The notes below the pieces were generated by a model. The model was not told the origin of the DNA and searched no databases. It saw nothing but the letters and a program-made list of their open reading frames with translations. DNA of 64,000 nt. Source: Escherichia phage vB_EcoM_IME392. Where the stretch lies: the sequence record MH719082.1. The stretch is one strand, 5' to 3'. The translations under genes were made by a program, and so were the position numbers. Of this stretch, positions 5,741 to 27,900 are shown in pieces (the first letter of the stretch is position 1; the number at the start of each line of letters is the position of its first letter).

Positions 5741-5765
5741 CGTTAAACTCCGTACGTAAAAATAA

Positions 5766-5783: not shown

Positions 5784-5788
5784 TATGA

Positions 5789-8994: not shown

Positions 8995-9026
8995 CTTTGT
9001 TATTCCTTACGGTTGGATTGACACTT

Positions 9027-9056: not shown

Positions 9057-9058
9057 AA

Positions 9059-9832
9059 TTAGCGATTCTCAGGTTCTACGTATTCCAGGCCCAGCAGCTG
9101 ATACAGTTCTTCCTCAGAGGAATTAGTATCCACACGCTCACCAGTCTCTACATTAAACAGGCCGTACTCATTAAGAGTCATGCCCATACGCTTAGCCACC
9201 GAACGCATGTGTACGTTATTCTGCATTGATCCTGTGGAGTGAAGTAAGCATGCATTCCAGGATTCTTCTGGACATATCTTGATATCGAACTCCAGACCAG
9301 TAGCGCAGTGTACGAAGCGGATCTTTTTATCCCCACCATAAACTTCTTCCATACCGGTAAGACGGAAGGCATGGCGAACCACTTCTGGAGGGTAAGTAGT
9401 GATCAGATCAACATCGCGAATCCACATCTTACCGCGACGTACTGAACCAGCAGTAGAGATCCGACCAGCAGATCCTTCAGCTAATCCTAACTTAGCCACT
9501 TCCATAAGGTAGGATTCTATGATATCCTTAAACTCGGTAGAGTAGGCAACACGCCCTTCTGGGACTTTAGACATAAGTTCAATGAACTTAGGAGTCATGG
9601 TACCATACTTGGCGAATGCTTCTAACTCGCTAGCAATCCCAGCACCGATCCATGGGATTGTAGTGAAGTTCATCTGGGAAGTTACACCATACGGGTAATC
9701 ATCCAGGGAACGGGCTGCACGATCATACGCCCGAACATGCCACATCGAGTCACCATGAGCTTTCTTAAGCTCGGCTATTTGGCGAAGGTGGCGAACAGCA
9801 TCAATACGGAAGGTCATCCTAACAGGCTCCAA
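9059..9832 (-). CDS. DNA polymerase beta-like (family X) nucleotidyltransferase
   Basis: GSVRRGKMWIRDVDLI matches Pol beta GSFRRG...DMDVLL catalytic motif. Confidence 0.6.
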   Translation of the reverse strand: MEPVRMTFRIDAVRHLRQIAELKKAHGDSMWHVRAYDRAARSLDDYPYGVTSQMNFTTIPWIGAGIASELEAFAKYGTMTPKFIELMSKVPEGRVAYSTEFKDIIESYLMEVAKLGLAEGSAGRISTAGSVRRGKMWIRDVDLITTYPPEVVRHAFRLTGMEEVYGGDKKIRFVHCATGLEFDIKICPEESWNACLLHSTGSMQNNVHMRSVAKRMGMTLNEYGLFNVETGERVDTNSSEEELYQLLGLEYVEPENR

Positions 9833-9982
9833 AACAGAGTTCTAAAAGTGGCGAATCCGCTGATAATGATGGTGGCCAACACCACCATCCAGAAATACTT
9901 TTTAGGGATATTCCAGACCAGACGACGAATCACCGTGTGCATTGCTGTGGTGAGTAATTGATCAAGAGTCGGAATTTTCATT

Positions 9983-10354
9983 TTATCGTACCTGAACTTG
10001 CTCGAGACCCACAATTCCTTCCAGGCTAGGAAGGAGCATCGACATCAGCTTGATATAACGAGCTGTGTCGCCTTCGCTAAGATCAACACACCAGAGATTC
10101 GGAGAACCGAAGATGCCTGGCCACTTAGGAGTGCGAGGACCGTATGTAACCATCAGGCCAGTATTAGCTTTTGAGGCTTCGTGGATTTTAGCCTTCCACT
10201 CATCGTAGACTTCTGGGTTAGCTTTAGGATCCATCACGAAATAGGCGAGGCAGTGACTTCCCTCCAGATAAGTGGAGTTAGACAGCATTGTACGCTCACC
10301 AGGCTGGTAAGAATCAACACGACAAACGGTAACGTCTTTTTCTAAGTTAGTCAT
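9983..10354 (-). CDS. hypothetical protein
   Basis: ORF track; AAGGAA RBS. Confidence 0.5.
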   Translation of the reverse strand: MTNLEKDVTVCRVDSYQPGERTMLSNSTYLEGSHCLAYFVMDPKANPEVYDEWKAKIHEASKANTGLMVTYGPRTPKWPGIFGSPNLWCVDLSEGDTARYIKLMSMLLPSLEGIVGLEQVQVR

Positions 10355-10365
10355 GATAGGGTTCC

Positions 10366-10473
10366 TTATGCGAAGTGGAAGATAGAAATAACAGCAGCCC
10401 AGAATGCAAAGCTCACGCCAAATACCAGAGCCCAGCTGTAACGATCTACGAAGCGGATGAGTTTAGTTGACAT
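10366..10473 (-). CDS. small hydrophobic peptide (35 aa, one predicted TM helix)
   Basis: ATG at 10473 with GGAG RBS; MSTKLIRFVDRYSWALVFGVSFAFWAAVISIFHFA; not in ORF track (short). Confidence 0.35.
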   Translation of the reverse strand: MSTKLIRFVDRYSWALVFGVSFAFWAAVISIFHFA

Positions 10474-10511
10474 TATTTTCTCCAAAATTAGATTATACTA
10501 AGTTAGTGGAC

Positions 10512-10586
10512 TGGGGCCGCCGGAGGCCGCCCCACCCAAAAGAACGGGCTTTAAACCCGTTCATAATTCGTTTATTTGAAAAATAA
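10512..10586 (-). repeat. composite conserved intergenic element, family B, copy 1
   Basis: GC-rich hairpin + CACCCAAAAGAACGGGCTTTA + spacer + CGTTTATTTGAAAAATAA. Confidence 0.5.
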
Positions 10587-10588
10587 TT

Positions 10589-10831
10589 TTACCACTGCTC
10601 GATAGACTTCTCTACTGCTTGTGGAAAGAGAGTCTTAGCCTTTTCCATAGCCATCTGGGATGGACCACTATGGTCCCAGTTAGGCAGCAAGTGCATCTCA
10701 GTAGGCTTAGGGAACAGACCGCGCAGCTTATTAACGCAGCTGGCGTAGACAGCATCAGAGCGAGTAAGGTGCTGGGAGCGGATATAATCGTTATACTGCC
10801 GTTGATCTTTGGCGAATACCAGAATGGCCAT
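10589..10831 (-). CDS. hypothetical protein
   Basis: ORF track. Confidence 0.45.
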   Translation of the reverse strand: MAILVFAKDQRQYNDYIRSQHLTRSDAVYASCVNKLRGLFPKPTEMHLLPNWDHSGPSQMAMEKAKTLFPQAVEKSIEQW

Positions 10832-11286
10832 TATTTATAATCCCTAATTAATTTTAAGATATCTTCGTTTAATACAGATGCGAGGTTAGGCTTATCTTCC
10901 AGAATACGTTTAGCATTCAGGATCTCAGACTTCCTCTTAGATAGAGGCTTATCCCGATTAATGAGATAAGCCAATTTCTCCTGGGTATCGACTAAGATAC
11001 CAGTAAGAGTCGGATGGAACCACTTAACCTGCTTGTCATAAGCATCCTGTTCAGTAGTTCCGTGGAAGAGTAATCCTTCGCTCACCAGCTTCAGACAGGT
11101 AGAGATGTTTGCCATGTTCACAGAATTATTATCTGTGCGGCATTCATAACCACCATTCTCTACAGCTGTATGCAGGATCTTGGTTCTGTCCATTAATTTA
11201 AAAGCCATCAGCGAACCTATAGATTCCGATTTCAGATTTATCCTGGTCAGATAAGTGACCCTGACGGTACATAACCAATCCATCAC
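10831..11286 (-). CDS. hypothetical protein
   Basis: ORF track; true start may be internal. Confidence 0.45.
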   Translation of the reverse strand: MMDWLCTVRVTYLTRINLKSESIGSLMAFKLMDRTKILHTAVENGGYECRTDNNSVNMANISTCLKLVSEGLLFHGTTEQDAYDKQVKWFHPTLTGILVDTQEKLAYLINRDKPLSKRKSEILNAKRILEDKPNLASVLNEDILKLIRDYK

Positions 11287-11358
11287 GAGTCCGGATTATG
11301 TCATCTGGGCAGATAGGCTTTAGCCTACTTATGACCATCAATGCTCTTACCCATTCCA

Positions 11359-11565
11359 TTAGCGGACCTTAGTTAAGTTGCCTCCGCTCACGTAAGGATG
11401 TTGTGAGCGGTAGACTGTTGAACTGAATTCCTGGGTAATAGACTTACATCCACTTCTATACCCAGGATCGTCAGGACTGCGAGGAGTATTCATGGCGGAG
11501 CCTTCCCGAATCATCTTCAGGAAGCGCTCCTCCTGCTCCTTAGTTTTAAAGAGCTTATATCCCAT
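11359..11565 (-). CDS. hypothetical protein (68 aa)
   Basis: Internal ATG at 11565 with GAGGT RBS. Confidence 0.4.
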   Translation of the reverse strand: MGYKLFKTKEQEERFLKMIREGSAMNTPRSPDDPGYRSGCKSITQEFSSTVYRSQHPYVSGGNLTKVR

Positions 11566-11572
11566 AATTACC

Positions 11573-11869
11573 TCAGAAGGAGATATGGACGTCGACAGGA
11601 TGCTTCGTAGCAGGAGTAGACTGCTCCACATCTGACAGTTTAGAGAACAGATCCTGGAGAGGAATGATCTCGCCTTCGACGAAGAGGTTATCCACGCTCT
11701 TGATTACTTTCGCCTTATTTTTATCCAGCACGATAAACGTCGTGGAGATAAAGTAGTCATGGTAGCGAGTATTCGGATGGAGATCGATATTAGTGATCTC
11801 TGCCAGATTCTTAGACTGGGCCGCACGCAGCAGGGCTCGGTGCTTAGACTTAATGATTACGGAAGGCAT
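11573..11869 (-). CDS. hypothetical protein
   Basis: ATG at 11869 with GGAG RBS. Confidence 0.45.
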   Translation of the reverse strand: MPSVIIKSKHRALLRAAQSKNLAEITNIDLHPNTRYHDYFISTTFIVLDKNKAKVIKSVDNLFVEGEIIPLQDLFSKLSDVEQSTPATKHPVDVHISF

Positions 11870-11871
11870 GG

Positions 11872-12252
11872 TTAGCTCCACATTAGATTTGTTGTTATCA
11901 GTGTATAGGTATGACTGATTGCAGCTAAGGCGGTCAGCATCTTCGACAATTTAACCAGGAACTTAATTTGATCCACAGCCAGATTCTCGTGTTGCTCATC
12001 AAGAAGAGCTGAGGTCCTTAAGGACAGACCCAGCAGATCTATAGGTTGAGCAACTCGCTCCGCTAAGCTTCCGCATAGACCATCTTCGGTTTCCACCTGA
12101 ATTAATTGGTCTACAATAGTGTTGTAGTGAATCGGGAGGAGGTCATCCTTGTTAATAGTGTCCCGTAACCCAACAAGACTCGTCGTTACGATCTTGACGT
12201 TATCTTCATCTACTACGTGGCCACCAACTACGGCTCTGAAGTATACAGACAT
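11872..12252 (-). CDS. hypothetical protein
   Basis: ORF track. Confidence 0.45.
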   Translation of the reverse strand: MSVYFRAVVGGHVVDEDNVKIVTTSLVGLRDTINKDDLLPIHYNTIVDQLIQVETEDGLCGSLAERVAQPIDLLGLSLRTSALLDEQHENLAVDQIKFLVKLSKMLTALAAISHTYTLITTNLMWS

Positions 12253-12261
12253 AGCGGCACC

Positions 12262-12573
12262 TTACTTATTCAGGTCGAGGAAGAAACGAGCACGATGGCT
12301 TAGAGAGTATAAATTGCACGGACGACCACCCTCTTCCGAGGCAGTAGTCGTTTTGATCAACCAGCCATCCTTCTCCAACTTATTACATACATAGTAGATG
12401 GATGTACGAGGGATTTGACCCAGTGATGCTTTGCTATCAGCAAAGACAGTTAACTCGTTGATCGTGGCTCCCGAAGCGGTTCCGGAGATATACCACAGAA
12501 TCATCGAGGAAGAATTAGATAGACGATACAGACGAGAGATAAGGAACAGTTTAGCGATATCGATGTTTTTCAT
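12262..12573 (-). CDS. putative winged-helix DNA-binding regulator
   Basis: Small protein with helix-turn-helix-like core; TATAAT and AGGAG upstream. Confidence 0.45.
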   Translation of the reverse strand: MKNIDIAKLFLISRLYRLSNSSSMILWYISGTASGATINELTVFADSKASLGQIPRTSIYYVCNKLEKDGWLIKTTTASEEGGRPCNLYSLSHRARFFLDLNK

Positions 12574-15148: not shown

Positions 15149-15665
15149 TCTTGATTTCCTCAGCAGTTACGCCAGTGATGTTTAAATACAGATCGGTAGG
15201 TAATTCTGGTAGGGTAGAGACATCCAGATTCTCTACGTCCTTAGCCAGAGTTATGTGAGGAGAGTATTCCGCACTGATCTCAGACGGCACCTCTCCAGAG
15301 GCACGGAGTCGATAGTTAAACGACTGTAGCAGATCGCTATCGAACGCCAGCACCAGGTAGTTAGCATTCTCACCAAAGATCTCATAGCGAGGATTCTTCA
15401 GATGAAGTTTGCTACCCACCAGATCAGCAATAGTTCCCTCATCCGGAGCACCAGTCCCCGGAGCATACATAAGGGTGCAGTGGTTATCGTGACCGGTATC
15501 GAAGTTAAGCTTATCATAATCAGCTACTTCGGAGATAACCTGCTTAAGATTATCTATCCAGGCATCAGAGTCTGGACAGAATTTTACCGAGGAGTAACCC
15601 TCGTCCACGGACTGTACAAGTCCTAACACTACTTCAGCTTTATTCATTTTTATCACCATGGCCAT
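15141..15665 (-). CDS. 2H phosphoesterase superfamily protein (LigT-like)
   Basis: Two H-x-T-x motifs (HCTLMY, HITLAK) with spacing typical of 2H phosphoesterases. Confidence 0.5.
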   Translation of the reverse strand: MAMVIKMNKAEVVLGLVQSVDEGYSSVKFCPDSDAWIDNLKQVISEVADYDKLNFDTGHDNHCTLMYAPGTGAPDEGTIADLVGSKLHLKNPRYEIFGENANYLVLAFDSDLLQSFNYRLRASGEVPSEISAEYSPHITLAKDVENLDVSTLPELPTDLYLNITGVTAEEIKND

Positions 15666-15952
15666 GGTAGTTTATTTTCGGGCTCCTGCCTATAGTAGGA
15701 GCATTTGATACCCAACGATTCCACAATACTTACAGGAATCTTATCAGTTACTTCAGAGTCTTGATAGATTGGTCCGAATACTGATACGTTTGGATCTTGC
15801 AACAGTTCAGATACTAATCCGGCTTCTTCATAAGTATCGAAGAATGCTGCGGTAGTATCCGGATTACAGCCGAGACCGGTCCATGAGGTGTAAAACTCGT
15901 TTACTCCACAGAGAGCACCGTGCTCCTTATGCACCACTAAAAATCCCAGCAT
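15653..15952 (-). CDS. hypothetical protein
   Basis: ORF track. Confidence 0.4.
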   Translation of the reverse strand: MLGFLVVHKEHGALCGVNEFYTSWTGLGCNPDTTAAFFDTYEEAGLVSELLQDPNVSVFGPIYQDSEVTDKIPVSIVESLGIKCSYYRQEPENKLPWPW

Positions 15953-16457
15953 CTGTGTATCCTTTAAGTTTATTTCTATACTTAACCATTTCCTGCTTAG
16001 CTATCTCATCGCAGAGATTATTTACTTTGTAGCGAGGATTATTGAACTTCTGATGACCTTTGACATGCTTAACCTTAATGGACTTAGGGTTAAGATCGCG
16101 AAGCATTTCCATATGCTTATCTATGAATTCCTTTAGTGCCCATTCGCAATCGCATTGGACGACTACTCTAACGCCATCGAACGCTGTCTTAGTCATGGCG
16201 AACCATAAGGTCTTCATGATCCCTTCTAGCTCTGCCCAGTTATTATCTGCAGCAGTAAATCCTCCGCGAGTTATATGAGCTCGCTGCTCACCAGGAAGAC
16301 GAATCCATCCTCCGAAGCCAGCAGCCTTACTCTTATGACAGTACGATGCATCTGAGAAGATTGTTATATACCCAGTAGGGTCCAGACCGCGTTCGGGAGT
16401 ACCCTCAAAGTGGATAACTCTACCAACATCTTTCTCACCGATAGCAGGTTTCTTCAT
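15927..16457 (-). CDS. RNase H (type 1-like)
   Basis: IFSDASY, WAELEGI and VKHVKGH...NNLCDEIAKQ blocks matching RNase HI catalytic DEDD arrangement. Confidence 0.7.
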   Translation of the reverse strand: MKKPAIGEKDVGRVIHFEGTPERGLDPTGYITIFSDASYCHKSKAAGFGGWIRLPGEQRAHITRGGFTAADNNWAELEGIMKTLWFAMTKTAFDGVRVVVQCDCEWALKEFIDKHMEMLRDLNPKSIKVKHVKGHQKFNNPRYKVNNLCDEIAKQEMVKYRNKLKGYTDAGIFSGA

Positions 16458-18025
16458 TACATATCCACCGTAGTTGCCTGGAATAAACCGACTACCATTT
16501 CATGGCTTGGTTTGACTACCGGACTATCGAAGTCGATAGAGCTATTGATGTTCTGGTTAACCATCATCAGGCTACGTACTTCCCAGCAAGCACGATCAGT
16601 CAGTACACGGTGAATTGCTGCGGTATCACCATCCACGTCCATGTTCTGACCACCCATAGCCATCGGAGGAACCTGAATCTCCTTACCCATGTGAGGTCTG
16701 ACCTTAAATCCCCATACTGAGTAACGGTGTAGGGATGGCGCACGGTTCATGAACACCGTAGCATTCTCACACAGTCTCCAGCATACTTCCAGAGCTACTC
16801 GGGACTTATTCTTGTACATACGCTGGACTTTATTGCTGATGTCGTACATGTTGTACCCTTCGTTAGTCGGGCCACCATATAAGTTCTCCAGCTCACCCAG
16901 GATGTCTGGCTGAAGTAATTCGTACATCATCTTGAACGGTACACCAAGAGTATCCAGCGGAAGATGAGGAGCCGAAGTAACTACAGAACGACCGGAGTAA
17001 TCAACGCGCTTACCTAACAGGTTACCACGGATTCGACCACCCTTACCTTTAAGGTTATTGATCATCGGCTTAATTAAATTACCTCGATAGTCCTTAGTAC
17101 CCTCCAGGATTAGTCCGTTAACCATCTTCTGCATTACAATAGATTCACGAGGAATCAGAGATAACAGCGCTTCGCTGGCCTCGGCAGTATCGCGAATACT
17201 TCTGATACGGATAGCATGGCGCAGGATTCGCAGGTAGAGTAAGTTAGTTGGATGATACGACATTACCCCATTACTGATACCAACATCACGATAGCTAGGA
17301 GGATTCACCAGCACCGTAGTGTTATAGAAGTCGCTGAACTCCGTATAACCACTATTGATTACTGTAGGATCTTCGCATTCTTCGATATAGGCTTTCATAT
17401 CAGCATGGTTAGCTACCAATGCCTGGATAAGGCTTAGGAGACCTAATTCAGATGACTCATGCTCGGACATACGGCGGATCTTGATCATTACTACTGCGAG
17501 GCGCTTCGTGCTATCCTGAACTGGGATAGTGTTAGAGTAGAACATCGCATACTTCTCACGATCTTCATATTCCGGAAGAGCAGCATTAGCCTCACGAACC
17601 CGCTCCCGATCATCGCCAACCATCTTAGCTGCCAAACCAGCTTCCTGGACTACGAAGCGGTATTTACCGATAAGGAACTGACCGAACTCTCGCTCTGGAA
17701 ACCCGAATAACGCAGCCATGCGTTTGATAGCTAATGGATTCACATAAGGAACGATCGTCTCGATGTGACCCATACGGCGGCGACGAGATTCACGATGCAT
17801 CGCTACCATACCGCATACATTACACGGAGGCGCTCCCATAACCATCTGGTTACCACACTCACACTTACCAGTTACCAGAGGTCCGAAGATACGCTGGCAG
17901 AATAACCCACCAGTGAATGGCTTAGGATCATGGAACTTAAGGTTATACATGCCCATACTGGTTACTTCACCACTGGACTCGGCACGGATTACAGCATCAG
18001 TTGCAATAGATAACTTTAATTTCAT
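16457..18025 (-). CDS. multisubunit RNA polymerase beta-prime subunit, N-terminal portion
   Basis: GLFCQRIFGP...CECG zinc motif, RRRRMGHIE, NLLGKRVDYSGRSVV, NRAPSLHR and NMDVDGD (variant of NADFDGD) in canonical order. Confidence 0.85.
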   Translation of the reverse strand: MKLKLSIATDAVIRAESSGEVTSMGMYNLKFHDPKPFTGGLFCQRIFGPLVTGKCECGNQMVMGAPPCNVCGMVAMHRESRRRRMGHIETIVPYVNPLAIKRMAALFGFPEREFGQFLIGKYRFVVQEAGLAAKMVGDDRERVREANAALPEYEDREKYAMFYSNTIPVQDSTKRLAVVMIKIRRMSEHESSELGLLSLIQALVANHADMKAYIEECEDPTVINSGYTEFSDFYNTTVLVNPPSYRDVGISNGVMSYHPTNLLYLRILRHAIRIRSIRDTAEASEALLSLIPRESIVMQKMVNGLILEGTKDYRGNLIKPMINNLKGKGGRIRGNLLGKRVDYSGRSVVTSAPHLPLDTLGVPFKMMYELLQPDILGELENLYGGPTNEGYNMYDISNKVQRMYKNKSRVALEVCWRLCENATVFMNRAPSLHRYSVWGFKVRPHMGKEIQVPPMAMGGQNMDVDGDTAAIHRVLTDRACWEVRSLMMVNQNINSSIDFDSPVVKPSHEMVVGLFQATTVDM

Positions 18026-18040
18026 TTTAATTTCTCCTAA

Positions 18041-18760
18041 TCAAGGCTTAGCGACGACAGTATAGGCTTCACGAACGATTTCACGAGCTACTTTAGCCGC
18101 ATGCTGAGTACCACAATACTGATGCATGTATTTGAACTGCACAGGTTGTTGCTGGCGAAGATGATTGATATAGCGACGAAGAGTAGGATGTGTGACACTC
18201 TGGTCAGCACCACTCACTACCATCATAAACGCAAACATCTTCAAACTAGCTTCACGTTTAGCAGGATATTTCTGCATGATGTAATCGATTACACCGTTCA
18301 CCAGGAGCTTCAGATCACGAGAACGCGCTATGGGTGATTTCTGGTCTGGGCTAATGGAAGCAGGATCGATTAATTCCACACGACTTTCGCCATCATCGTC
18401 CGTTACGAGAGTAGACTCGTTAAAGGACATTATGTGACGACGATCCATCGTTTCTTTATCTTCGTGACGAGTATCACCAGTTTTAGCCATATAACCAGTT
18501 GGGTTAACTACCCGAAGATACTCATGCGACACGATAGAGTCAGCAACGTATGGATTATTATTGACACGAGCAATGTTACGGTCTAGAGAACGTAAATCTC
18601 CTGAATCTAATGCGCTATCATAGAAGGATAAGTCGATGTACTCGTCCCCAGTGTTAGCAATGTTGAATGTTTCATGGAACTTATAGTTAGCGGTCATTGG
18701 TCTATCCCAATTAGAGAATTCAAAGAGCGACCGCGAGGCCGCTCGGTTACCTGCTATCAA
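18041..18760 (-). CDS. hypothetical protein (between the two RNAP genes)
   Basis: ORF track. Confidence 0.5.
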   Translation of the reverse strand: MIAGNRAASRSLFEFSNWDRPMTANYKFHETFNIANTGDEYIDLSFYDSALDSGDLRSLDRNIARVNNNPYVADSIVSHEYLRVVNPTGYMAKTGDTRHEDKETMDRRHIMSFNESTLVTDDDGESRVELIDPASISPDQKSPIARSRDLKLLVNGVIDYIMQKYPAKREASLKMFAFMMVVSGADQSVTHPTLRRYINHLRQQQPVQFKYMHQYCGTQHAAKVAREIVREAYTVVAKP

Positions 18761-19095
18761 AGCGCGAAGTAATACCAGTCACCATAAACGCGAATCAGCA
18801 CTTCCTGACTTTCTGCGTCCACATTAGTGAAGTAGAAGCTACCGAATCCGAACTCCAGAGACTCACCAGTCTGCATGAGATCTGCCATTTCATCCATGAA
18901 CTTATCGAAGTCTGGATCACGGTCCTGAACTACAGCGACTTCCACCTCCTTGGCGTACAATTCAGAACGACCAATATGAGGAGCAGCCTGGCGGAACTCC
19001 ATTACAGCACCACGAGCCAGATTTTCCTCAGCAGCATCCCGAACAGAGTCAGTATCGATTGTAGCGAAAGATTTAATCGCATTTAAACGTGACAT
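18757..19095 (-). CDS. hypothetical protein
   Basis: ORF track. Confidence 0.45.
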   Translation of the reverse strand: MSRLNAIKSFATIDTDSVRDAAEENLARGAVMEFRQAAPHIGRSELYAKEVEVAVVQDRDPDFDKFMDEMADLMQTGESLEFGFGSFYFTNVDAESQEVLIRVYGDWYYFAL

Positions 19096-19123
19096 AGTAT
19101 TAGCTCCAAATTAGATTATCCAG

Positions 19124-19196
19124 TGAAGCGCGACCGCACCCCACCCAAAAGAACGGGCTTTATGAGCTCCCAAAAATCGGTTATTTGAAAAATAAA
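19124..19196 (-). repeat. composite conserved intergenic element, family B, copy 3
   Basis: CACCCAAAAGAACGGGCTTTA...CCCAAAAATCGGTTATTTGAAAAATAA. Confidence 0.5.
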
Positions 19197-19202
19197 TTTC
19201 AA

Positions 19203-19895
19203 TTATTTTTGGTTAGGAGGCATCTTGCGAGAGCGACGATAGTTAATCATCGTACATGCACAGTTACGCTTATCCTGAGTCTCATAGATAATTGCGCTGG
19301 ATAATTCCACATTAGACAATAGCAGAGTCATTACCCGACCTTGGGAAGACAGATCCTGGATGCGCTGCTTATTGATGAACTCTCTTACGGTTTCCTTAGA
19401 GTACAGCTTACGATCTCTACGTCCGCAAGTAATCACGTCTTCTATGGGGACCACCATATCCCCTAGTTCCTTAATTATGAAACGATCATCTGTTATGATA
19501 ATAGGGAACGACTTCAATAGTTCTTCCACAATCCGTAGAATACCATTGCCCATTCCGTAATACCGCCGATTACTAATATCGTCAATAAGATTATGTCGAT
19601 ATTTTTCATTAATATAGGTTTTGTGGGTAGCCAACAGATAGTACAGTTGCATACCACCGAACCCTTCACATGCCAGATTTCTCCGGAGTACCGCCTTACT
19701 TCCTGCGATAGTGAAGTTTCTGATAGGATACCAATCAGTGGTCCAAAAGTCGTCTATGTCGTCTATATGCGACTCTATTCCATTATACCAGACTGGCTGT
19801 AGGGCATCTGTACCTATGAATTTACGACCCTCGTAGCATATACTGTCCCCTACCGTATGGATCAGCAGGGGATTATAGATCTTGCCCACATCCAT
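19203..19895 (-). CDS. hypothetical protein
   Basis: ORF track. Confidence 0.5.
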   Translation of the reverse strand: MDVGKIYNPLLIHTVGDSICYEGRKFIGTDALQPVWYNGIESHIDDIDDFWTTDWYPIRNFTIAGSKAVLRRNLACEGFGGMQLYYLLATHKTYINEKYRHNLIDDISNRRYYGMGNGILRIVEELLKSFPIIITDDRFIIKELGDMVVPIEDVITCGRRDRKLYSKETVREFINKQRIQDLSSQGRVMTLLLSNVELSSAIIYETQDKRNCACTMINYRRSRKMPPNQK

Positions 19896-19903
19896 CTCCC
19901 AAG

Positions 19904-21418
19904 TTATTTGTTATTCAGATTTAACCCAGCAATGATCATCTCGGAACGGGTTCCGAAGCTAACATCACCATTAAGCACCGCCGAGGTAAGACGCTGCTTA
20001 ACGTTACCGTGGCCGATAGACTTCAACCAGCTAGGATGCTTCGTAGGGATGGCATCAGCTTTAATCGCCAGTACCTCACCTTTATCACCCATGCTGCGAA
20101 CGCCGATTCGTCCGTTATTCATCTTAACTAGATCAGTACATCCACGAGCAATGATCTCATGGTGAATCGATGCGATACCGATACCGATGTCGTCGAAGAT
20201 ATGCTTAAGCTGGATTGATGCTAGCTCTGCACCCTTAATAGCCGAACCAGTTTCGTGGGCAAGATCCGTGATGCACTTATACTTAGACTCAGATACCTGA
20301 GCCACCGCAGTACCTCGGCCACCTACCGTCTTCAGGATATCAGCCAAGGTATTACTTACCGAGGTACCGAATTCCTTAAGCGTAGTCGAACCAGATGTAT
20401 GCTTACCACGAAGACCAGCCTGAGTAGATGGTTCAGATATATGCTGCGCCGACGCCGTTCCAATACCGAAGTTAATCGGGAAGAAGTTAGCTGGCTTAGC
20501 CGGATCCATACCGCAGCAATGCTGACATACCCCACCCTTAGTTGATTCACAGGTAATCGGGCTAAGAACTTTCACATTACCTTCTTCATCTGCTAACTGA
20601 TCAACATTCTCTTTAGTGACCATTACTCGGTCGCTAGTGAATCGATACAGTGCCGATTTCTTAGGTAAGGTAATCACTTCCTTAGTTCCACAGTCCTCTT
20701 CGACAATAGACAGCTCTCTGGAACAGTTAACTAGCTGGCGAGCGAACCACCCAGTCGCAGGTACCAGGAAGAAGTTACCAGCCAGACCCTTACGTGCAGG
20801 TCCGCAGGTATTGAAGTAGTTGATCGGAGATAATCCAGAGCTTAAGTTCTCCATGATCGGCATCGGCATGATCTTACCAGTCATACCCACCAGAAGACCC
20901 TTAGCTACCACCATCGAACGAACCTGGGGAGGAGATACACGAGCACCGGATACACCCATCGCATACAGAGGATTATGACGGTCCACTTCTTTGAACCAGC
21001 GATCAGTACATTCGTTGATCACCTTATCAGCAGCAGCCAGACGATCCTCATACCCCATCTTACCAAGCTCCTGGGTCATAGCTGGGAAGTCAATACCGAA
21101 GTCAAACTTAGTATCGTCATAGCACAGGCTAAGTCCAGACATAGTTGCTTTATGGAATCCGAACTGCTGCAACTTATGTAATCTACGCCCAGCTACTTCC
21201 GGAGTGTAGTTATTATTGATGTGAGAGACGATCTTCGCAGATTCCTTCTTATCGATTTCTTTCTCTGGAAGATAGCCACTGATTTCCCAAATAAACAGTC
21301 GACCGATAGTAGTTTCTTTAGGACCATCAGAGAAGTAAAAACGCACCGGAGTGGTGTAGGTTGCTTCTTTCATATCAATAAGACGGTGTAATTCATTCAA
21401 GGACTTTGATACGATCAT
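19904..21418 (-). CDS. multisubunit RNA polymerase beta-prime subunit, C-terminal portion
   Basis: GVSGARVSPPQVRSM...GPARKGLAGN, EEDCGT, GVCQHCCGMD, ASAQHISEPSTQ blocks colinear with bacterial beta-prime C-terminal half. Confidence 0.8.
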   Translation of the reverse strand: MIVSKSLNELHRLIDMKEATYTTPVRFYFSDGPKETTIGRLFIWEISGYLPEKEIDKKESAKIVSHINNNYTPEVAGRRLHKLQQFGFHKATMSGLSLCYDDTKFDFGIDFPAMTQELGKMGYEDRLAAADKVINECTDRWFKEVDRHNPLYAMGVSGARVSPPQVRSMVVAKGLLVGMTGKIMPMPIMENLSSGLSPINYFNTCGPARKGLAGNFFLVPATGWFARQLVNCSRELSIVEEDCGTKEVITLPKKSALYRFTSDRVMVTKENVDQLADEEGNVKVLSPITCESTKGGVCQHCCGMDPAKPANFFPINFGIGTASAQHISEPSTQAGLRGKHTSGSTTLKEFGTSVSNTLADILKTVGGRGTAVAQVSESKYKCITDLAHETGSAIKGAELASIQLKHIFDDIGIGIASIHHEIIARGCTDLVKMNNGRIGVRSMGDKGEVLAIKADAIPTKHPSWLKSIGHGNVKQRLTSAVLNGDVSFGTRSEMIIAGLNLNNK

Positions 21419-21437
21419 TACTTAATTCTCCAAATTA

Positions 21438-21752
21438 TTATGCAGCTACGGATAAGTTTTCAAGGTAACTAACCACTCGGTCGGAATGGCGGAAGATCTT
21501 CGGATCCTGAGGTAAGTCAGTAGCGAAGTTGTGGAAGATCTTGTAGTAGATCTCCCGACGCTGCTCGTCGTTCTTATGAGGAACTCGAACAGTTATGGAA
21601 ATAGTCTGATCTCCCTTATCCACCAGGATGTACGGGAAACCTGTAGAGGAAGCAAATACCCCACGGTAGTTAACACGGTCGAACAGATTACTGAGCATCT
21701 GATACGATTTACGCTGGCGGAAAGTAGCCTTAGACAGATCAAAGTACTGCAT
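21438..21752 (-). CDS. hypothetical protein (104 aa)
   Basis: Internal ATG at 21752 with GGAGA RBS. Confidence 0.4.
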   Translation of the reverse strand: MQYFDLSKATFRQRKSYQMLSNLFDRVNYRGVFASSTGFPYILVDKGDQTISITVRVPHKNDEQRREIYYKIFHNFATDLPQDPKIFRHSDRVVSYLENLSVAA

Positions 21753-22083
21753 TGATAATCTCCTCAGCCTGATGATCAACCAGGAATACTCCACACTGAC
21801 CATCATAACCAATACGCTGCGAATTAAAGCCGTACACAGTAATAACTTCTGATATCCCATCGATAGGATCAGTTTCACCAGAACGAATCACTGGGTAACG
21901 ACCAGACAGGATATACTGCTCAATCACCATGGCCCAGTGATCGTTATGAGACGACCCAGCCACAACCTTATCAGGATCGGTGAGGATCAGGTCAGCGAAC
22001 TTACGCAGAGCGGCCTCCTCGAAGCCATCAACATCTGCCAAGGTTACCAGACCATGCTCCTTCTTGAACTCGTCACTAATCAT
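21739..22083 (-). CDS. hypothetical protein
   Basis: ORF track. Confidence 0.45.
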   Translation of the reverse strand: MISDEFKKEHGLVTLADVDGFEEAALRKFADLILTDPDKVVAGSSHNDHWAMVIEQYILSGRYPVIRSGETDPIDGISEVITVYGFNSQRIGYDGQCGVFLVDHQAEEIINAVL

Positions 22084-22547
22084 AAAGCCTCCAGAACTAA
22101 GTGGACGTTATTCCCTACGCTGTCATTTACAACGATATGGGATTTAAACTTATACATTTCGTTGATCACATCAGTCATGTGAATCACCGGAATATACACT
22201 CGGTCAGAACCAACTACTGCAACTTCATTAAGCCAGTCATAGTCGATTTCATGGGTCTTCAGGAGATTTATGAGATCACGGTACATAAGGCTTACAGACT
22301 TGATTCCACCACTCATACGAGCAGACCAGTCTGTAGCCGGAACTGATTCAATTTCCTTCCTACCTTTCATCTTACGGCGAAAGATGGCGGACTGAACGTT
22401 CCATAACTCTGAGAATTCTTGATCGGGGATTTCTCGACCATGCTTGGTCCGAGAGACCAGTCGAGCTTGAGGATCGGCATTAGGACGGAACTGCTCAGCG
22501 ATAGAAGGAGCAGCTTGTTGGAAGGCAGCGAAAAGGGATGTAGACAT
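22080..22547 (-). CDS. hypothetical protein (155 aa)
   Basis: Internal ATG at 22547 with GGAGA RBS; longer ORF would overlap conserved element. Confidence 0.45.
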   Translation of the reverse strand: MSTSLFAAFQQAAPSIAEQFRPNADPQARLVSRTKHGREIPDQEFSELWNVQSAIFRRKMKGRKEIESVPATDWSARMSGGIKSVSLMYRDLINLLKTHEIDYDWLNEVAVVGSDRVYIPVIHMTDVINEMYKFKSHIVVNDSVGNNVHLVLEAL

Positions 22548-22584
22548 GACTTTCTCCAGTCTTTCAAGGTCGCAGGCAACGCGA

Positions 22585-22675
22585 CGGATCATTCGGCGGG
22601 AAACGCCCCGCCCCAAGTGAACGGGCTGTGGGGCGTCTCAAACTTCGCCAGGAAGCGTCTTTTTGAAACTATTTT
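22585..22675 (-). repeat. composite conserved intergenic element, family B, divergent copy
   Basis: GGCGGG-aaacg-CCCCGCC hairpin + CCCAAGTGAACGGGCT... + T-rich tail. Confidence 0.35.
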
Positions 22676-22678
22676 TGA

Positions 22679-22918
22679 TTAGAATCCCTGGGTAGCAATC
22701 ATGTAAACCAGGTTAGTTATCCCAGCCTCATCCGAGGAATCAAGGCCGATTCCTTTAAGGACTTCTGCAGGAACATGCTCACGAATAGCCGGAACCAGAG
22801 CAGCATGGTTACCTTTATCAAACTCTTCCCAAGACTCAGCTGGGATTGCCTCGACCAGTTCACTGAAAGAGGTGGTAGTGATGATTTCATCGTAGCGGGA
22901 TTGAGAAATGATTGTCAT
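22679..22918 (-). CDS. hypothetical protein
   Basis: ORF track; TATAAT and GGAG upstream. Confidence 0.45.
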   Translation of the reverse strand: MTIISQSRYDEIITTTSFSELVEAIPAESWEEFDKGNHAALVPAIREHVPAEVLKGIGLDSSDEAGITNLVYMIATQGF

Positions 22919-22943
22919 GATTTAACTCCGTATTATAATGAAC

Positions 22944-23048
22944 GGCGAAGCGGCCAACCCGCTCCACCCAAAAGAACGGGCTTATCTGACGTCCAAAGTT
23001 CGTTTTATTTTTCAAAAACATTTCGACAATGAAAAATATTTTTGAAAA
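22944..23048 (-). repeat. composite conserved intergenic element, family B, copy 4
   Basis: CACCCAAAAGAACGGGCTTA...GTTCGTTTTATTTTTCAAAAA...TTTGAAAAATA. Confidence 0.45.
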
Positions 23049-23051
23049 ATA

Positions 23052-23065
23052 GGCCATCCCTGGCC
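23052..23065 (-). terminator. intrinsic terminator-like hairpin
   Basis: GGCCA-GGGA-UGGCC followed by UAUUUUUC, just after stop of 23073-24533. Confidence 0.45.
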
Positions 23066-23072
23066 TAATGAA

Positions 23073-24533
23073 TCAGCGAGCTTTGCTGATTGCCTGGGTA
23101 ATACGTTGGGACTGTTTACGCCAGGATTGCTGCAGACGAGGATTAAGCTTCATGATTACAGACATAATCATGGCTAGTACTCCGCGCTTAGCCTTAGGAC
23201 TACCAGACTTAGCATCCTTCAGGTATTTACGAGCCACAGTTTTAATATCCTGGGATGGCCAGGTCTTAATGACTGGTGACTTAACCTGCTTAGCTAGCGC
23301 TACGAAAATTACCAGAGTGCTGATAAGGTCGGAGGTACGTACAGAGCCTTTACCACCCATCAGTACTTCGATAACCTTGTTAACGCGACGGAGCACTTCC
23401 GACGGAGCTGCTTCGTCTACTCCCTCAGGCATAGCCGTACTCTCAGAAGCAGATAGCTTCCAGGAGTTAGCAGTAGCCATATCGGTAGTGTAACATGCTG
23501 ACAGCTCATCGTCGGATGCTTCGGACAGATTCATGAACTCGTTCTTAGTCGGGTTCCAAACCATATCCTTGTACTTAATGTACCAGCGACCACCATCGTC
23601 TTTGATCATATCAGGGACTTCACCCTTAGACAGATCTTCGTTGACAGATCGTCCCATCAACCAGCGGTAAACAGGTTTCAGATCCCAGCGACCATCAGGA
23701 GTAACCTTCACATCCTGGCCAGTCAGATCCTTAATTACCTGAGTTACGTTATCGCCAGTCTGGTTGATCTTATGGTTAGTCACCAGCTGCGCTACGGACT
23801 TCTTATTACCCTGATCGTCGGTACGTTCTGCACCACGTAAGATCATGGTGGAGTTAATCTGGTCCATAGTGAATCCAGCATCGATAAGACGCTTGATCTG
23901 AGCCATGACCTGATCATACTCCTTCGGCAGCTTATCTACGAACTCGTTGAGCTGCAGACCAGCACCAGCAGTCATGCTACCACGACCCGCCGCATCACCG
24001 GTAGTCAGTCGAGCAATAACAACCAGTTTAGAACTGGAAGATAGCTTAGGATGGTTAATGAATTTCGACAGAAAATCATTTACCGTAGTGATCTCTTCAG
24101 GGTTATTAGCACGGTTGCTAGATGCCAGTTCTGTGAACATACCCATAGCGGAACCATCCGGAGTCTCATAAGCATCCATCATATTCAGCTGGGTAGAACC
24201 ACCTTCCCCATCTTCGGCGAAGAATGCATCAGCTGAGAACGTACCAGAACGAACTTCTTTCTGGACGAACTCACGCATCAGGTTCTTAGCCATCTGAGGA
24301 GACATCATCATCAGGTAGGAATAGTAGTCACGCAGGTTAGCATCACTGGTATTCTGCATCTTGCGGAACATAGTGTACCACTGGGATGAACGACCATTCT
24401 TCTCGATGTCAGCAATCGCATGATCCAACATACGCTGGTCAATAAATCGCTCAACGTCAGCAAGCGCCTCGTCTACTTCTTCGCCGAATCCAGCAACAGA
24501 TAGCAGGACAGCGGCTTTATTTAAGTTTTCCAT
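23073..24533 (-). CDS. hypothetical protein (486 aa)
   Basis: ORF track; followed by hairpin plus U-tract. Confidence 0.55.
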   Translation of the reverse strand: MENLNKAAVLLSVAGFGEEVDEALADVERFIDQRMLDHAIADIEKNGRSSQWYTMFRKMQNTSDANLRDYYSYLMMMSPQMAKNLMREFVQKEVRSGTFSADAFFAEDGEGGSTQLNMMDAYETPDGSAMGMFTELASSNRANNPEEITTVNDFLSKFINHPKLSSSSKLVVIARLTTGDAAGRGSMTAGAGLQLNEFVDKLPKEYDQVMAQIKRLIDAGFTMDQINSTMILRGAERTDDQGNKKSVAQLVTNHKINQTGDNVTQVIKDLTGQDVKVTPDGRWDLKPVYRWLMGRSVNEDLSKGEVPDMIKDDGGRWYIKYKDMVWNPTKNEFMNLSEASDDELSACYTTDMATANSWKLSASESTAMPEGVDEAAPSEVLRRVNKVIEVLMGGKGSVRTSDLISTLVIFVALAKQVKSPVIKTWPSQDIKTVARKYLKDAKSGSPKAKRGVLAMIMSVIMKLNPRLQQSWRKQSQRITQAISKAR

Positions 24534-24638
24534 CTTAAATCCTTATTTAAGTGATCACACGCGAGAAATAAATGGGATGATCAGTCCCTACTCGCTAAGT
24601 GGTGAACGGATTCATCCGTGTAGTCTCCGTCCACCAGA

Positions 24639-24669
24639 TTAACAGCCTTTCGAGTCATCAAAAGAGCGG
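24639..24669 (-). promoter_or_regulatory. 31-bp conserved intergenic motif
   Basis: Consensus match; about 105 nt upstream of start at 24533. Confidence 0.5.
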
Positions 24670-24671
24670 TT

Positions 24672-24941
24672 TTATCGAATTAGCCCATACTTCCATGCCA
24701 TTACATGCGCAGGTTCGTTATGAGCGAAGAATGCGGTACCCTTCTTGGTAGTAAGCACCAAACATGGCTTATTTCCCATCATATCAGCCATGCTAGCTAC
24801 CACAGTCTTCTCAGACCCAGGCTTAGCCGGATCAATGCCCATAGCTATTTTATGAGCAGTTGTCTTACCAGGACGTCTCGGATTAGATACCAAGACTTTA
24901 GGGGAGGCCTTTCGGCCACCCTTACGCTGCTTTCTCGCCAT
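24672..24941 (-). CDS. small basic protein
   Basis: ORF track; Lys/Arg-rich N-terminus. Confidence 0.4.
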   Translation of the reverse strand: MARKQRKGGRKASPKVLVSNPRRPGKTTAHKIAMGIDPAKPGSEKTVVASMADMMGNKPCLVLTTKKGTAFFAHNEPAHVMAWKYGLIR

Positions 24942-27900
24942 GTTTAGGCTCCAGAGTTATTTTAGCCTTAAGCTCGATATACTTACATCCCCAGCCTGTA
25001 CCGTCGGAACGAATACCGGATTTGGAGTTGAAGCTGTTAGCTATAGAGTTTAACTTCTCCTTCTCCTTAAGGATCTCTACGTATGGAGTCCACTGGCTAT
25101 ACTGATCGAGAGCTTCCAGTAGTTTTTCCAATGCAGACTCACGACCCTCAACGATCAGCCATCCGGAACCATCTTCGTTAACTCCATAGTCATCCAGACC
25201 CATCAAGGAACCTCCCCGAGCACCGAATTCGATATCAGTGCGCATAGGCATATCCCAGAGTTCACGAATAGCTCCCTCCATATTCTCACGAGTCTTCTGG
25301 AATACCTTGAACATCTCGTTGATTCCGGATGTGGTATCCAAGGAGTCGTGGACCATGATGTGAGTCTCGGCTTCCATATTGGACTGCTTAAAGTCCTCAT
25401 CCAGGAAATACATACCTGCACCAGCAACCATCGACGAAGTATTCTGGATAGGGTAGTTCACCGAAGTAGAGTTAACGTTGGTACCTTCCAGGTTGATACG
25501 GTTACCGAAGTAGCCATAAGCATACCCAGTCTCGAAGCCATTTTTCTTGGTAGCATCAATCCATGCCTTAAGACCGGTAAACTTACCGAATACCGTGTCC
25601 ATCAGATTCTGAGCACGCTCCATATCACCACCAGTAGCAACCATCGCTACCGATTCAAGGCTAGACTGGTATACTAATGCGAAGTTAATCGCCTTACCAC
25701 CCTTACGCTCAACATCAGTTACTTCAGGTTCAGACTTCTGGTATGCAATAGAGCTAACGAATCGGTGCATGTCACCACCAGATGAGAATACGTTCTTCAT
25801 ATCCGAGTCATCGGCGAACACGCTAACCATCACCAGCTCAGCCTGGCTAAAGTCCTGGTGATACCACAGACCACCCTCCGGCTTAGATACCCAGATGTTA
25901 CGCAGAGTACTGTCGCCAGGAACGTTATGAATACCTGCCTGCCAACGGGATGTAATCGCAGCCAACGAGTTAAAGTCCGGAGTCATGATGTAACAATCTT
26001 CACCATCCTGCAACTTCGGATTATCCCAGTCGTACTTACGAACTCGCAGTGGAGGTAGACCATCACGTAGCTTAGCTGCCCATACCGTCTGACGTCCTAC
26101 CTTACCATCAATGTACGTAGCAATCTGTTTGTAGTGACGCTTATACATCTTCAGGTCAACCATCATACGGAACGATGTATTCCAGGTAGACTCGTCGTCA
26201 GGATTAACTCCCAGCATCAACTGGTGAATAGCCAATTGAGCATCGAGAACATCCGCTTTAAACTTATTCGTGAATCGCTCTTCATAAGCTTCCAGACCGT
26301 CCTGGACGCACATGGCAATTAACTCTCGAACATGCTTAGACTCAGCAGTATCCCCGAATTGGATGATCCTGGTTAAGATCTCATCTACCGGAAACTCCCG
26401 GAAGAATTCCTTCTCCAGCTTCTCCGAATCCTTAGGCACGAATCCCTTAGAGATCGCTAGCAGGGTTTTATCCCAGTAGTCATGCACCTTAAGCTGGTCC
26501 ATTACAGACCATAGCATGGTACACATCTCGACTTCATCGGTAAGATAGGCTTTCCAGAACTTCTCCTTATTAGCCTTATCGTTACTGTTAGGGTTGAAGA
26601 ATCCAGACAGATCAGCAATCTTCCCAGCCAGAGTAGTAACCATCTTACGGCGCTCTTGGCCACCAGGAGTGTACCATACGTTCTCGTACGGCAACTCTCG
26701 ATAGATAAAGTCACGAGCTGTAAGCATCTGGTCAGGAGGTAACTTAAGGTTAGGAATTAGGCTAACCAAGTGCTCCGACATTTTGCTCATGCAATAGTCG
26801 TACTCTTTAGTCGCCTCTTCGTCATCCCAACGAATACCGTTAGCTTCAAAGATAGATGCCAGGTATGGATGTAACATATATACGTTATACCCATCCTTAT
26901 ACTTATCGTAAAACATCTCGTGGATGAACACACCGTACGCGGAGTCATAGCAGCAGTACTCCCCAAGAATCTCACGAGGAATCGCACCCCACTCATATGG
27001 GTAGAACGATGCCAAGTAAATAATCTCGGATTCTTCGAGCTCCTCCGATAGTTCGGCTATCTTATCCAGCATAAACTGGTTGAAGTTAACAGGAACACGA
27101 TTCTTAGCTGCCTTAGTCGGAGCCGCTTCCACGAGTTTCTCGTACTCAGCTTTAAGAGCTAGGTGATGCTCAATATTGAACTCACCGGACTGAATCTCGG
27201 CAATCTGTTCAGGAGTACAACGCTTCTTCATATCCTTGAAGATAGCTGCCCAACGATCCTTCCATTCGTGTACCGACCCTTCCCAGAAGTCTGCATGTAA
27301 ATAACGACGAGCAGCATCTTTCAACGAGCTTCGTTCGCCATGCATAGTCAGAGTTACAATCGCATCTATAAACTTACAGAATACGTCTAACCAGTGCCAC
27401 GTAGTCTTAATCTCGTACGGGCAGTTAAACGCCACGATCTGTTCCTGGAACTTAACCAGGAAGTCACGCAGGAATCCGAGCTGCTCCGGAGTCTCTTTAC
27501 CGGTAACATTATACCATACAGACTTGGCATCCTTATCACCAATCTTCTTAGCGATACTGAATCCAGTGATCCGGAAGTCTACCGAGAATAAATCAGCTGC
27601 GTTAGACTCATAGTCGAGGCCGAGATAGCCTTTGTACCCAGACCACATAATGTCGTTAAGGAACTCCTGGAGGCCGTTCCAGTCGACGAATTCCCACTCT
27701 ACATTATACTCGGATTCTTTCTGGCCGAATACCAGAAACTTAAAACGATCAATCCACGAATCCAGTAGGCCAGGATCAGAATCCAGATTACGTTCAACCT
27801 GGGCATGGTGCATGACTACAGCTAGCTTAAAGTTATACTCCGGTATGTTACCCAGAGGGAACTTCAGCAACTTATCCAGAGTCTTCTTATGCGTGTAACC

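Follow-up and report, generated by a model that had tools for sequence, protein, structure and literature searches.

A split bacterial-type RNA polymerase β′ subunit without a recognisable β partner in an EP_H11-like Escherichia phage

What use does a bacteriophage have for one of the two catalytic subunits of a multisubunit RNA polymerase (RNAP) if the other is not recognisable in its genome? The question is raised by a stretch of 64,000 nucleotides of Escherichia phage vB_EcoM_IME392 (sequence record MH719082.1; the whole stretch is called the window below and positions refer to it), in which two open reading frames (ORFs) between 16457 and 21418 on the minus strand encode the halves of the subunit β′. 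An earlier interpretation made without database searches (the sequence-only reading) had described the split, the transcription of the C-terminal half before the N-terminal half with three ORFs in between, and the absence of β-subunit motifs from the window. All three observations hold: the N- and C-terminal hallmarks and the ORF list are as described, and no β was found in the window by motif or by domain. With a probability of roughly 0.5, which covers the firm part of the interpretation as well, we propose that the split β′ joins the β and α subunits of the host RNAP and is steered by phage-encoded factors to a promoter-like motif, here called class 1.

The two ORFs are the N- and C-terminal halves of one minimal bacterial-type RNAP β′, denoted β′N (522 amino acids, aa) and β′C (504 aa). 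The domain-model search that the sequence-only reading had advised located Rpb1 domains 1-2 in β′N (Pfam RNA_pol_Rpb1_1, E-value 5e-14; Rpb1_2, 3e-23) and domains 3-5 in β′C (Rpb1_5, 3e-12; Rpb1_3, 3e-6, just under the gathering score; Rpb1_4, 1e-4, under the gathering score), and the collinear order of domains 1-5 over the two halves is that of a bacterial-type β′. Every motif quoted earlier is present. β′N carries a zinc-binding cysteine cluster (CxC..CxxC), NLLGKRVDYSGRSV, NRAPSLHR and the catalytic loop NMDVDGD, and β′C carries GARVSPPQ, the bridge-helix motif GPARKGLAG (GPARKGLAGNF...), EDCG with C..C..CC as the second zinc site, and SEPSTQ...RGKH of the trigger loop. In a MAFFT alignment of the window halves with E. 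coli RpoC and seven phage relatives, β′N also shows the lid and clamp helices, the rudder and NLLGKRVDYSGRS. The bridge helix, both zinc cysteine clusters and the trigger loop (SEPSTQAGLRGKHTSG, with the equivalents of R933 and H936 kept in β′C) all align to the E. coli elements, and β′C retains the C-terminal clamp segment. Compared to RpoC, the phage protein lacks sequence insertion 3 (SI3), the jaw, the first ca. 16 residues and the C-terminal tail. All three aspartates of the catalytic loop, NADFDGD in canonical β′, are kept in NMDVDGD. This variant, for which confirmation had been suggested, is real and is confined to the window, its closest relative Escherichia phage EP_H11 and two metagenomic relatives; NADFDGD is found in 114 of the 120 homologues listed, and the relatives carry NADFDGD or NADYDGD, the aspartates being invariant in all others.

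In the alignment the halves are collinear and do not overlap, with the junction at about residue 515 of E. coli RpoC; a frameshift can thus be ruled out and the split is genuine. The same split point occurs in at least seven independent relatives (genomes or contigs). Relative to EP_H11, β′N is 91.7% identical in nucleotides and 97.5% in amino acids, and β′C 92.5% and 98.8%. Because amino acid identity is far above nucleotide identity, this comparison indicates that both halves are under purifying selection along their full length. Retained function is also supported by mobile elements in the β′N genes of relatives, since introns and inteins usually home to essential sites. In Acinetobacter phage Ab1-TPeters (L014, PP763253) a group I intron (11293-11604; Rfam RF00028, 66 bits, E 1e-16) lies inside the catalytic motif NAD/FDGD: the frame halts after ...PFNAD and restarts with FDGDQ... 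354 bp on. The record of this phage labels the β′N exons as separate hypothetical proteins. The β′N gene of locus L010 is broken by an intein with an HNH domain.

Among the 50,697 phage records searched, the sole megablast relative of the window is EP_H11 (94% identity over 95% of 25 kb), an unclassified phage of 111,373 bp that has the gene order of the window and in which β′N is the only β′ half that is annotated. The window phage is an EP_H11-like E. coli myovirus of about 111 kb and belongs to the thymidine-hypermodifying 'RP13-like' group. EP_H11, RP13, YerA41, SP-15 and Carin-5 have been grouped under this name as phages with hypermodified thymidine in PMC12686479, where vB_EcoM_IME392 (MH719082, 116.5 kb) is also named. 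Homology searches with β′ returned about 15 phage and metagenomic relatives at 99-32% identity, RP13 included, with bacterial β′ following next (ca. 30% identity, E ca. 1e-46). A tblastn search of the phage records added Ab1-TPeters, the Rhizobium RHph_TM30/Y65 group and the Vibrio phages Va2, 1.031.O and 150E35-1. More remote β′ sequences, 24-27% identical over about half of the N half, occur in YerA41/GN1, Carin-5, Arash and the Vibrio D69 group. In the same type of search phiKZ- and AR9-type phages were only marginal, and Staphylococcus jumbo phages were matched with 38% coverage at E 2e-6. The top PHROG of both halves is phrog_25354 (E 1e-48 and 7e-30). Because the halves match this one profile of 1216 positions collinearly (positions 9-507 and 615-827), phrog_25354 probably represents an unsplit β′ family. 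Matches to phiKZ/AR9-type PHROGs are far weaker (phrog_2987, E 5e-16; phrog_3015, 6e-20; phrog_2986, 4.5e-6; phrog_2962, 4e-5). Judged by these comparisons, the window β′ is closer to bacterial β′, at about 30% identity, than to the jumbo-phage subunits.

The β subunit was sought along several routes. Pfam gave no Rpb2 family in the window ORFs of at least 100 aa or in the large ORFs of the rest of the EP_H11 genome, which are structural (sheath, gp23-like capsid, baseplate J, tail spike, DUF4815). With YerA41 β as tblastn query, only noise was obtained from the window, the complete EP_H11 sequence and all related loci. Against the 50,697 phage records the same query matched 41 records, all of them listed, and none is EP_H11, RP13, an RHph phage, Ab1-TPeters, Va2, 1.031.O or 150E35-1. 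E. coli β matched 94 records; no member of this β′ group is among the 60 listed, and Rhizobium is absent from the organism tally. The phages matched by the YerA41 or E. coli protein are YerA41, Carin-5, Arash, the D69 group and phiKZ-like and AR9-like phages. A hidden Markov model (HMM) built solely from E. coli and S. aureus β retrieved, as a positive control, the β of Arash, Carin-5 and YerA41 at E-values of 1e-58 to 1e-52; 3,260 six-frame ORFs taken from the window, EP_H11 and the other loci gave no match with an E-value up to 1. Pfam, tblastn and HMM searches of the EP_H11 genome, the window and the related loci gave no β-like subunit beside β′ of the kind present in phiKZ and AR9, and directly downstream of β′, where YerA41 and Carin-5 have β, there is a protein of 230 aa that is unrelated to β (family B, see below). 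The β fragments that the sequence-only reading thought might be encoded in the rest of the genome were not found in the complete EP_H11 genome. Because the tblastn searches and the control-validated HMM search came back empty, this β′ clade appears to be devoid of any β of ordinary conservation. In the literature searched, no paper was found on a missing β or on the RNAP of EP_H11, RP13 or the RHph phages.

Three protein families accompany β′ and are called A, B and C here. Family A, which probably starts at the ATG at 18697 and not at the TTG at 18760, lies directly upstream of β′N in the window, L005, L006, L008, L009 and Ab1-TPeters and adjoins β′ elsewhere; in L010 it is placed just downstream of β′N and in RP13 two genes past β′C. 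Its profile matches proteins of Ab1-TPeters and RHph_TM30 and, more weakly (E 0.0012), of Vibrio phage 150E35-1, and no match was found in Pfam, PHROG or PDB. The family may act as an RNAP-associated factor for specificity or assembly. Family B has invariant residues I134 and D136 ('VITD'). A B-like gene follows β′C in RP13 and, by a weak match (E 0.012), β′ in RHph_TM30, and a profile search of a set of 5.8 billion sequences found 4 proteins. The AlphaFold2 model of family B is poor (predicted local distance difference test score, pLDDT, 51) with only the α/β C-terminal half confident, and a Foldseek comparison of this poor model with the PDB gave no match. Family C is linked to β′C in Ab1-TPeters, and 27 members were found by a full HMMER scan of 1.84 billion representatives; the window protein is 100% identical to BFVD/UniProt entry A0A385IRW0. 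Its model (pLDDT 70) is mostly α-helical and has no β-barrel. Foldseek retrieved for it no solved structure from the PDB, and from BFVD only its own entry and a single remote relative (20% identity). Searches with the profiles of A, B and C gave no match among PDB sequences or in Pfam.

Families A and C have one N-terminal module of about 60 aa in common (...fY.kA...D....YY..R...P..A.N...). In RHph_TM30 (L011) two ORFs upstream of the unsplit β′ (9922-10653 and 11096-11752) are A-like: each is matched by the A profile and less strongly by that of C. In Va2 (L020), where β′ is also unsplit, the two upstream ORFs are one C-like and one that matches the A and C profiles weakly (3398-4801 and 5260-5901), and by profile Ab1-TPeters likewise has A-like and C-like genes upstream of β′. 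From these matches A and C look like paralogous β′-associated factors, not β fragments, and the shared module suggests an uncharacterised superfamily of such factors. Their genomic linkage to β′, together with the phage-specific promoter-like motifs described below, makes them candidates for σ-like factors that bind the RNAP core; helix-turn-helix patterns resembling σ region 4 are a by-eye impression only. Neither a double-psi β-barrel nor β motifs were found by hhalign of A, B and C against a β alignment (probability below 0.1%) and by modelling of C, whose model is helical; the stretch of C that resembles Rpb2_3 is unconserved, and the B model is too poor for a judgement. Two assignments to β were considered and rejected. 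The segment 'FGGMQLYYLLA' of family B, compared with the β motif 'GEMEVWA', is not conserved in the family B alignment. Family C was examined as a fragment of the β fork domain on account of a Pfam Rpb2_3 match (E 0.097) and a by-eye match (HKRRISALGPGG...EVRDVH); its ETPDG stretch is absent from the other 27 members, and the negative hhalign result and the helical model also rule the assignment out.

Two classes of promoter-like motif are found around these genes, both on the transcribed strand. Class 1 consists of CCGCTCTTTT-N8/9-AAAGGCTGTTAA, extended with (R)(K)TGT, and has an 11-mer core AAAGGCTGTTA that is present in 21 exact copies in the window, each within the bipartite motif and all on the transcribed strand, against fewer than one expected. 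Most copies lie 20-70 nt upstream of start codons of genes for replication and nucleotide metabolism, for example PolA, topoisomerase, ligase and family C. In EP_H11 the motif occurs only in non-structural gene blocks and is absent from the structural block, and in L005 it is kept upstream of PolA; it is a candidate phage-specific promoter. Class 2 is an intergenic module of about 110 nt in five near-identical copies, all on the minus strand, with an AT-rich part of the type TTCAAA-N17-(C)ATAAA followed by AAGCCCGTTCTTTTGGGTGG, a GC hairpin and TCTAATTTGGAG-ATG. It may be a σ70-like early promoter with a conserved structured leader. For late genes, nothing convincing was found as a promoter motif in the structural block of EP_H11.

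On the minus strand β′C comes first, then family B, an ORF of 112 aa, family A and finally β′N. Gene neighbourhoods and an all-versus-all BLAST of the related loci show that β′ is fused in RHph_TM30 (1127 aa) and Va2 (1192 aa), that β′N and β′C adjoin in this order in L008 and L009, and that one to five genes are inserted between them, in the same order, in L006, L010, 150E35-1 and RP13 (five in RP13). The halves are 40 kb apart in Ab1-TPeters. β′C precedes β′N only in the EP_H11/L005 sublineage, with two inserted genes in L005 (47% identity) and three in the window. Because A accompanies β′N and B accompanies β′C in relatives, the window order β′C-B-(112)-A-β′N can be derived from the common order A-β′N-β′C-B by an exchange of the two pairs. 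The permutation that had attracted attention is thus real and is shared by EP_H11, but it is no deep feature: on the comparison of these loci it is a recent, lineage-specific swap of two gene pairs confined to this sublineage, an ordinary shuffling of two co-regulated pairs. The three intervening ORFs are present as described, but only two of them belong to the conserved module. A stretch of ca. 290 bp (18794-19083) that makes up most of the 112-aa ORF is absent from EP_H11 by blastn, and this ORF is, judging by its distribution, a recent strain-specific insertion. Among the four small ORFs ahead of β′C only 22080-22616 has a homologue, in L005. An Rfam scan of the window from 15500 to 25500 gave no family. 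A homing-endonuclease origin of the split was considered and rejected, as no HNH, GIY-YIG or LAGLIDADG match was found in the intervening genes of 150E35-1, RP13, L006 and L010. A different arrangement is seen in Salmonella phage Arash (L017, OQ632216), where one gene of 1525 aa (7933-12510) is a fusion of β and β′N and β′C lies 4.8 kb downstream.

How such a β′ could work is best explained, in our opinion, by the use of host subunits. The two halves would assemble after translation into a catalytically competent β′, as other natural split β′ subunits do. As β′ needs a β and the phage encodes none, the partner would be host β: most likely the phage β′ joins host β, α2 and perhaps ω to form a hybrid core enzyme. 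The task of directing this enzyme to the class-1 motif would fall most plausibly to the helical paralogues A (the short one) and C (the long one), and family B may help assembly. Class 2 would be read early by the host holoenzyme, leading to β′N, β′C, A and B, and class 1 would be read by the enzyme with phage components, leading to the replication genes and C. The replacement of a subunit is possibly an adaptation to the transcription of bulky modified DNA; the jaw and SI3, both missing from the phage β′, line the downstream-DNA channel. For the hybrid itself, phage β′ on host α2β with specificity provided by A and C, we would stop somewhat short of even odds. Equally tentative is the extension to a whole clade (EP_H11-like phages, RP13, Ab1-TPeters, the Rhizobium Kleczkowskaviridae and the Vibrio phages Va2 and 1.031.O), in which mid-sized phages with hypermodified thymidine would encode only β′ and build a chimeric RNAP by replacing host β′ on α2β, guided by A and C.

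Several points weigh against this proposal. The strongest is the combination of undemonstrated compatibility with host β and lack of precedent: the binding of the phage β′ to host β is only predicted, at about 30% identity to E. coli β′ the compatibility of the interface is unproven, and we know of no phage that replaces only β′. The pre-formed host core is stable, so that a route of exchange or assembly would be needed. Sequence and profile searches and Foldseek of the C model revealed no recognisable σ domain or assembly-factor domain in any of the three families, and no Pfam Sigma70 match was obtained in the 27 and 29 members of families A and C even at lenient E-values. The profile check of a complete sequence covers EP_H11 alone; that the other phages have no β is judged from tblastn, with 60 of the 94 records matched by E. 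coli β being listed.

The other explanations have to account for the same combination of a well-conserved β′ and an absent β. One is a fully phage-encoded RNAP in which the β function resides in one or more proteins too diverged for recognition, for example A, B, C or small ORFs, as in crAss-like or YonO-type enzymes. The three families would suit this role in that they are conserved and tightly linked to β′ in every relative, have unrecognised folds and total about 950 aa, with family B sitting where YerA41 and Carin-5 have β and family C giving, besides the weak Rpb2_3 match, the top though non-significant match of a β HMM (E 0.09). The Rpb2_3-like stretch (ETPDG..GM..LAS) is, however, not conserved in the 29-member C alignment, and the hhalign probabilities, the empty PDB and Pfam searches with the C profile and a helical C model with no β-barrel and no RNAP match all argue against it. 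The most serious difficulty is that β′ is well conserved (E ca. 1e-46 to bacteria), so that a co-evolving β that had lost every motif (RHGNKG, GEMEVWA, PSRM) would have no precedent among the phage enzymes compared; those of YerA41, Carin-5, Arash, phiKZ and AR9 have a β that can be recognised as easily as their β′. We therefore regard a hidden β as unlikely. A smaller chance still is given to a β′ that does not polymerise at all and serves as a decoy or regulator, for instance by sequestering host σ, NusG- or Gre-type factors or α2β intermediates and so shutting off the host. The lack of an encoded β partner, the retention of the clamp-helix region that binds σ and the loss of jaw, SI3 and C-terminal tail would all fit, but such a protein has no need to keep a whole active centre. 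The aspartate triad, bridge helix, trigger-loop Arg and His and both zinc sites are conserved in all relatives, the A-to-M and F-to-V changes in NMDVDGD spare all three aspartates, purifying selection is strong along the full length, and relatives carry an intron exactly in the catalytic loop and an intein in the same gene.

Two further explanations concern the nature of the genes themselves. The sequence-only reading had put them in the frame of phiKZ/AR9-like jumbo phages, which would imply that β fragments are encoded in the part of the genome beyond the window. That group typically has split β′ genes, and the weak matches to its four PHROGs point the same way, but the frame does not fit: the nearest genome has 111,373 bp, far from the jumbo range (>200 kb, two RNAP sets), and was searched completely with no β found; there is a single β′ set of one β′N and one β′C; bacterial β′ is the next-best match and the phiKZ-type PHROGs are much weaker; and relatives have fused versions. 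We consider this explanation very improbable. A frameshift artefact, or two ORFs from unrelated families, had been named as what might overturn the split. Beyond the unusual gene order nothing favours an assembly or sequencing error or a decaying pseudogene, with one gene broken by frameshift or rearrangement. The collinear alignment, the identical split point in the independent relatives, the intact ORFs with proper starts and stops, the shared gene order of EP_H11 and the selection on both halves reduce its probability to a negligible level.

Comparison with known systems shows where the window β′ stands. YerA41 and Carin-5, myoviruses with hypermodified thymidine, belong to the same broad phage group and have a bacterial-type β′, which in YerA41 is split at about the same site. 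As in the window their RNAP cluster adjoins replication genes, and it has a gene of about 200 aa directly upstream of β′ that is called 'sigma factor' in the Carin-5 annotation. Unlike the window, YerA41 has a β of 924 aa directly after β′C and Carin-5 one of 927 aa after an unsplit β′, at the place taken by family B (ca. 220 aa) in the window, and their β′ is only ca. 26-27% identical to that of the window over about half of the N half. Kinship of the Carin-5 'sigma factor' or YerA41 gp136 with A or C was considered and rejected (hhalign not significant); neither has Pfam σ domains. RHph_TM30/Y65 (Kleczkowskaviridae), Va2, RP13 and Ab1-TPeters have the same β′ lineage as the window, at 30-50% identity, and no detectable β, and differ in architecture as described above. 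The phiKZ and AR9 enzymes share with the window a phage β′-like subunit split into separate genes. Their gp68 and gp226, respectively, are extra phage-specific subunits of unknown ancestry, and the window phage likewise has extra unknown companions. Unlike the window phage, they have β as well as β′ fragments, usually in two complete sets, are independent of host RNAP, occur in genomes of >200 kb and are far more diverged from bacterial β′.

Natural two-polypeptide β′ subunits also occur in cyanobacteria and plastids (rpoC1/rpoC2) and in archaea (A′/A″), where the two proteins form one functional subunit, and a split β′ can thus be fully active. Their split sites differ from the phage site and, unlike the window genes, theirs are adjacent, in N-to-C order and beside β. 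The reprogramming of the host core by temporal class, known from T4 (AsiA/MotA, gp55/gp33) and the σ cascades of SPO1, is a second parallel. The window phage may work likewise, having two strand-specific classes of promoter-like motif and two paralogous β′-linked factors. T4 and SPO1 add σ-like or σ-binding proteins and keep the host catalytic subunits, whereas the window phage would replace one, for which we know of no precedent.

Table 1. Positions of the features discussed, in the numbering of the window
Feature	Position	Strand	Remarks
Class-2 copies	around 10540, 14039, 19149, 22972, 45277	-	AAGCCCGTTCTT core starts at 10540, 14039 and 45277
β′N	16457-18025	-	N-terminal half of β′
Family A protein	18041-18760	-	239 aa from TTG at 18760; 218 aa from ATG at 18697
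Terminator-like GC hairpin and T run	18725-18744	-	Predicted by consensus scan; between 112-aa ORF and likely family A start
112-aa ORF	18757-19095	-	No homologue in any related locus; no Pfam or PHROG match
Class-2 module	19096-19202	-	TTATTTTTCAAATAAcCGATTTTTG-N10-AAAGCCCGTTCTTTTGGGTGG, GC hairpin, TCTAATTTGGAG-ATG; heads the (112-aa ORF)-A-β′N unit
Family B protein	19203-19895	-	230 aa; directly downstream of β′C in 7 of 7 metagenomic/RP13 loci examined
β′C	19904-21418	-	C-terminal half of β′
Four small ORFs	21438-22918	-	ca. 21438-21752, 21739-22083, 22080-22616, 22679-22918; precede β′C in its transcription unit
Class-2 module	22919-23072	-	Heads the unit ending with β′C-B
Family C protein	23073-24533	-	486 aa; conserved gene between PolA and the β′ cluster
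Class-1 core AAAGGCTGTTA	24640-24650	-	107 nt upstream of family C start codon
Class-1 core starts	2085, 9027, 14785, 24640, 28241, 31828, 33684, 35820, 37559, 39900, 40741	-	Exact copies
Class-1 core starts, continued	44091, 50119, 55326, 56312, 57777, 59304, 59487, 59545, 60150, 61174	-	Exact copies
BCCT-family transporter	37577-38959	-	460 aa; Pfam E 1e-92; annotated BetT in EP_H11

The remainder of the window encodes PolA, helicases, primase, ligase, topoisomerase II, SbcCD, a thymidylate-synthase homologue, a 5-hydroxymethyldeoxyuridine (5-hmdU) DNA kinase domain and further nucleotide-modification genes. Additional Pfam domains are the 5-hmdU DNA kinase helical domain, a Pol-β-like thumb/HHH_8, an Acb1-like anti-CBASS protein, a PinA-like peptidase inhibitor, RusA, RNase H, a YfbR-like 5′-deoxynucleotidase, glycosyltransferases and methyltransferases. 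A transporter of the BCCT (betaine/carnitine/choline) family is unusual for a phage genome and may be linked to the supply of the DNA hypermodification pathway.

The split of β′ was already known in kind, as the RP13 annotation names both halves and that of EP_H11 one. What appears to be new is that β is consistently absent over a clade whose β′ is functional, and that this goes along with two unknown families of β′-linked proteins and a promoter-like motif specific to the phage. To our knowledge, all characterised multisubunit RNAPs of phages (phiKZ and AR9; by annotation YerA41 and Carin-5) supply the two catalytic subunits themselves, and all characterised hijackers of host RNAP leave the catalytic core intact; a conserved, selected and catalytically intact β′ without β falls between the two. 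With an E. coli host, a 111-kb phage and clear candidate factors and promoters, the system is tractable. Should the phage β′ fail to pair with host β, a β-like protein of a new kind must be concealed in the phage. If it does pair, this would be a new mechanism of takeover and would offer a natural experiment on the compatibility of RNAP subunits and the minimal architecture of β′, and the hybrid enzyme might explain how heavily modified DNA is transcribed.

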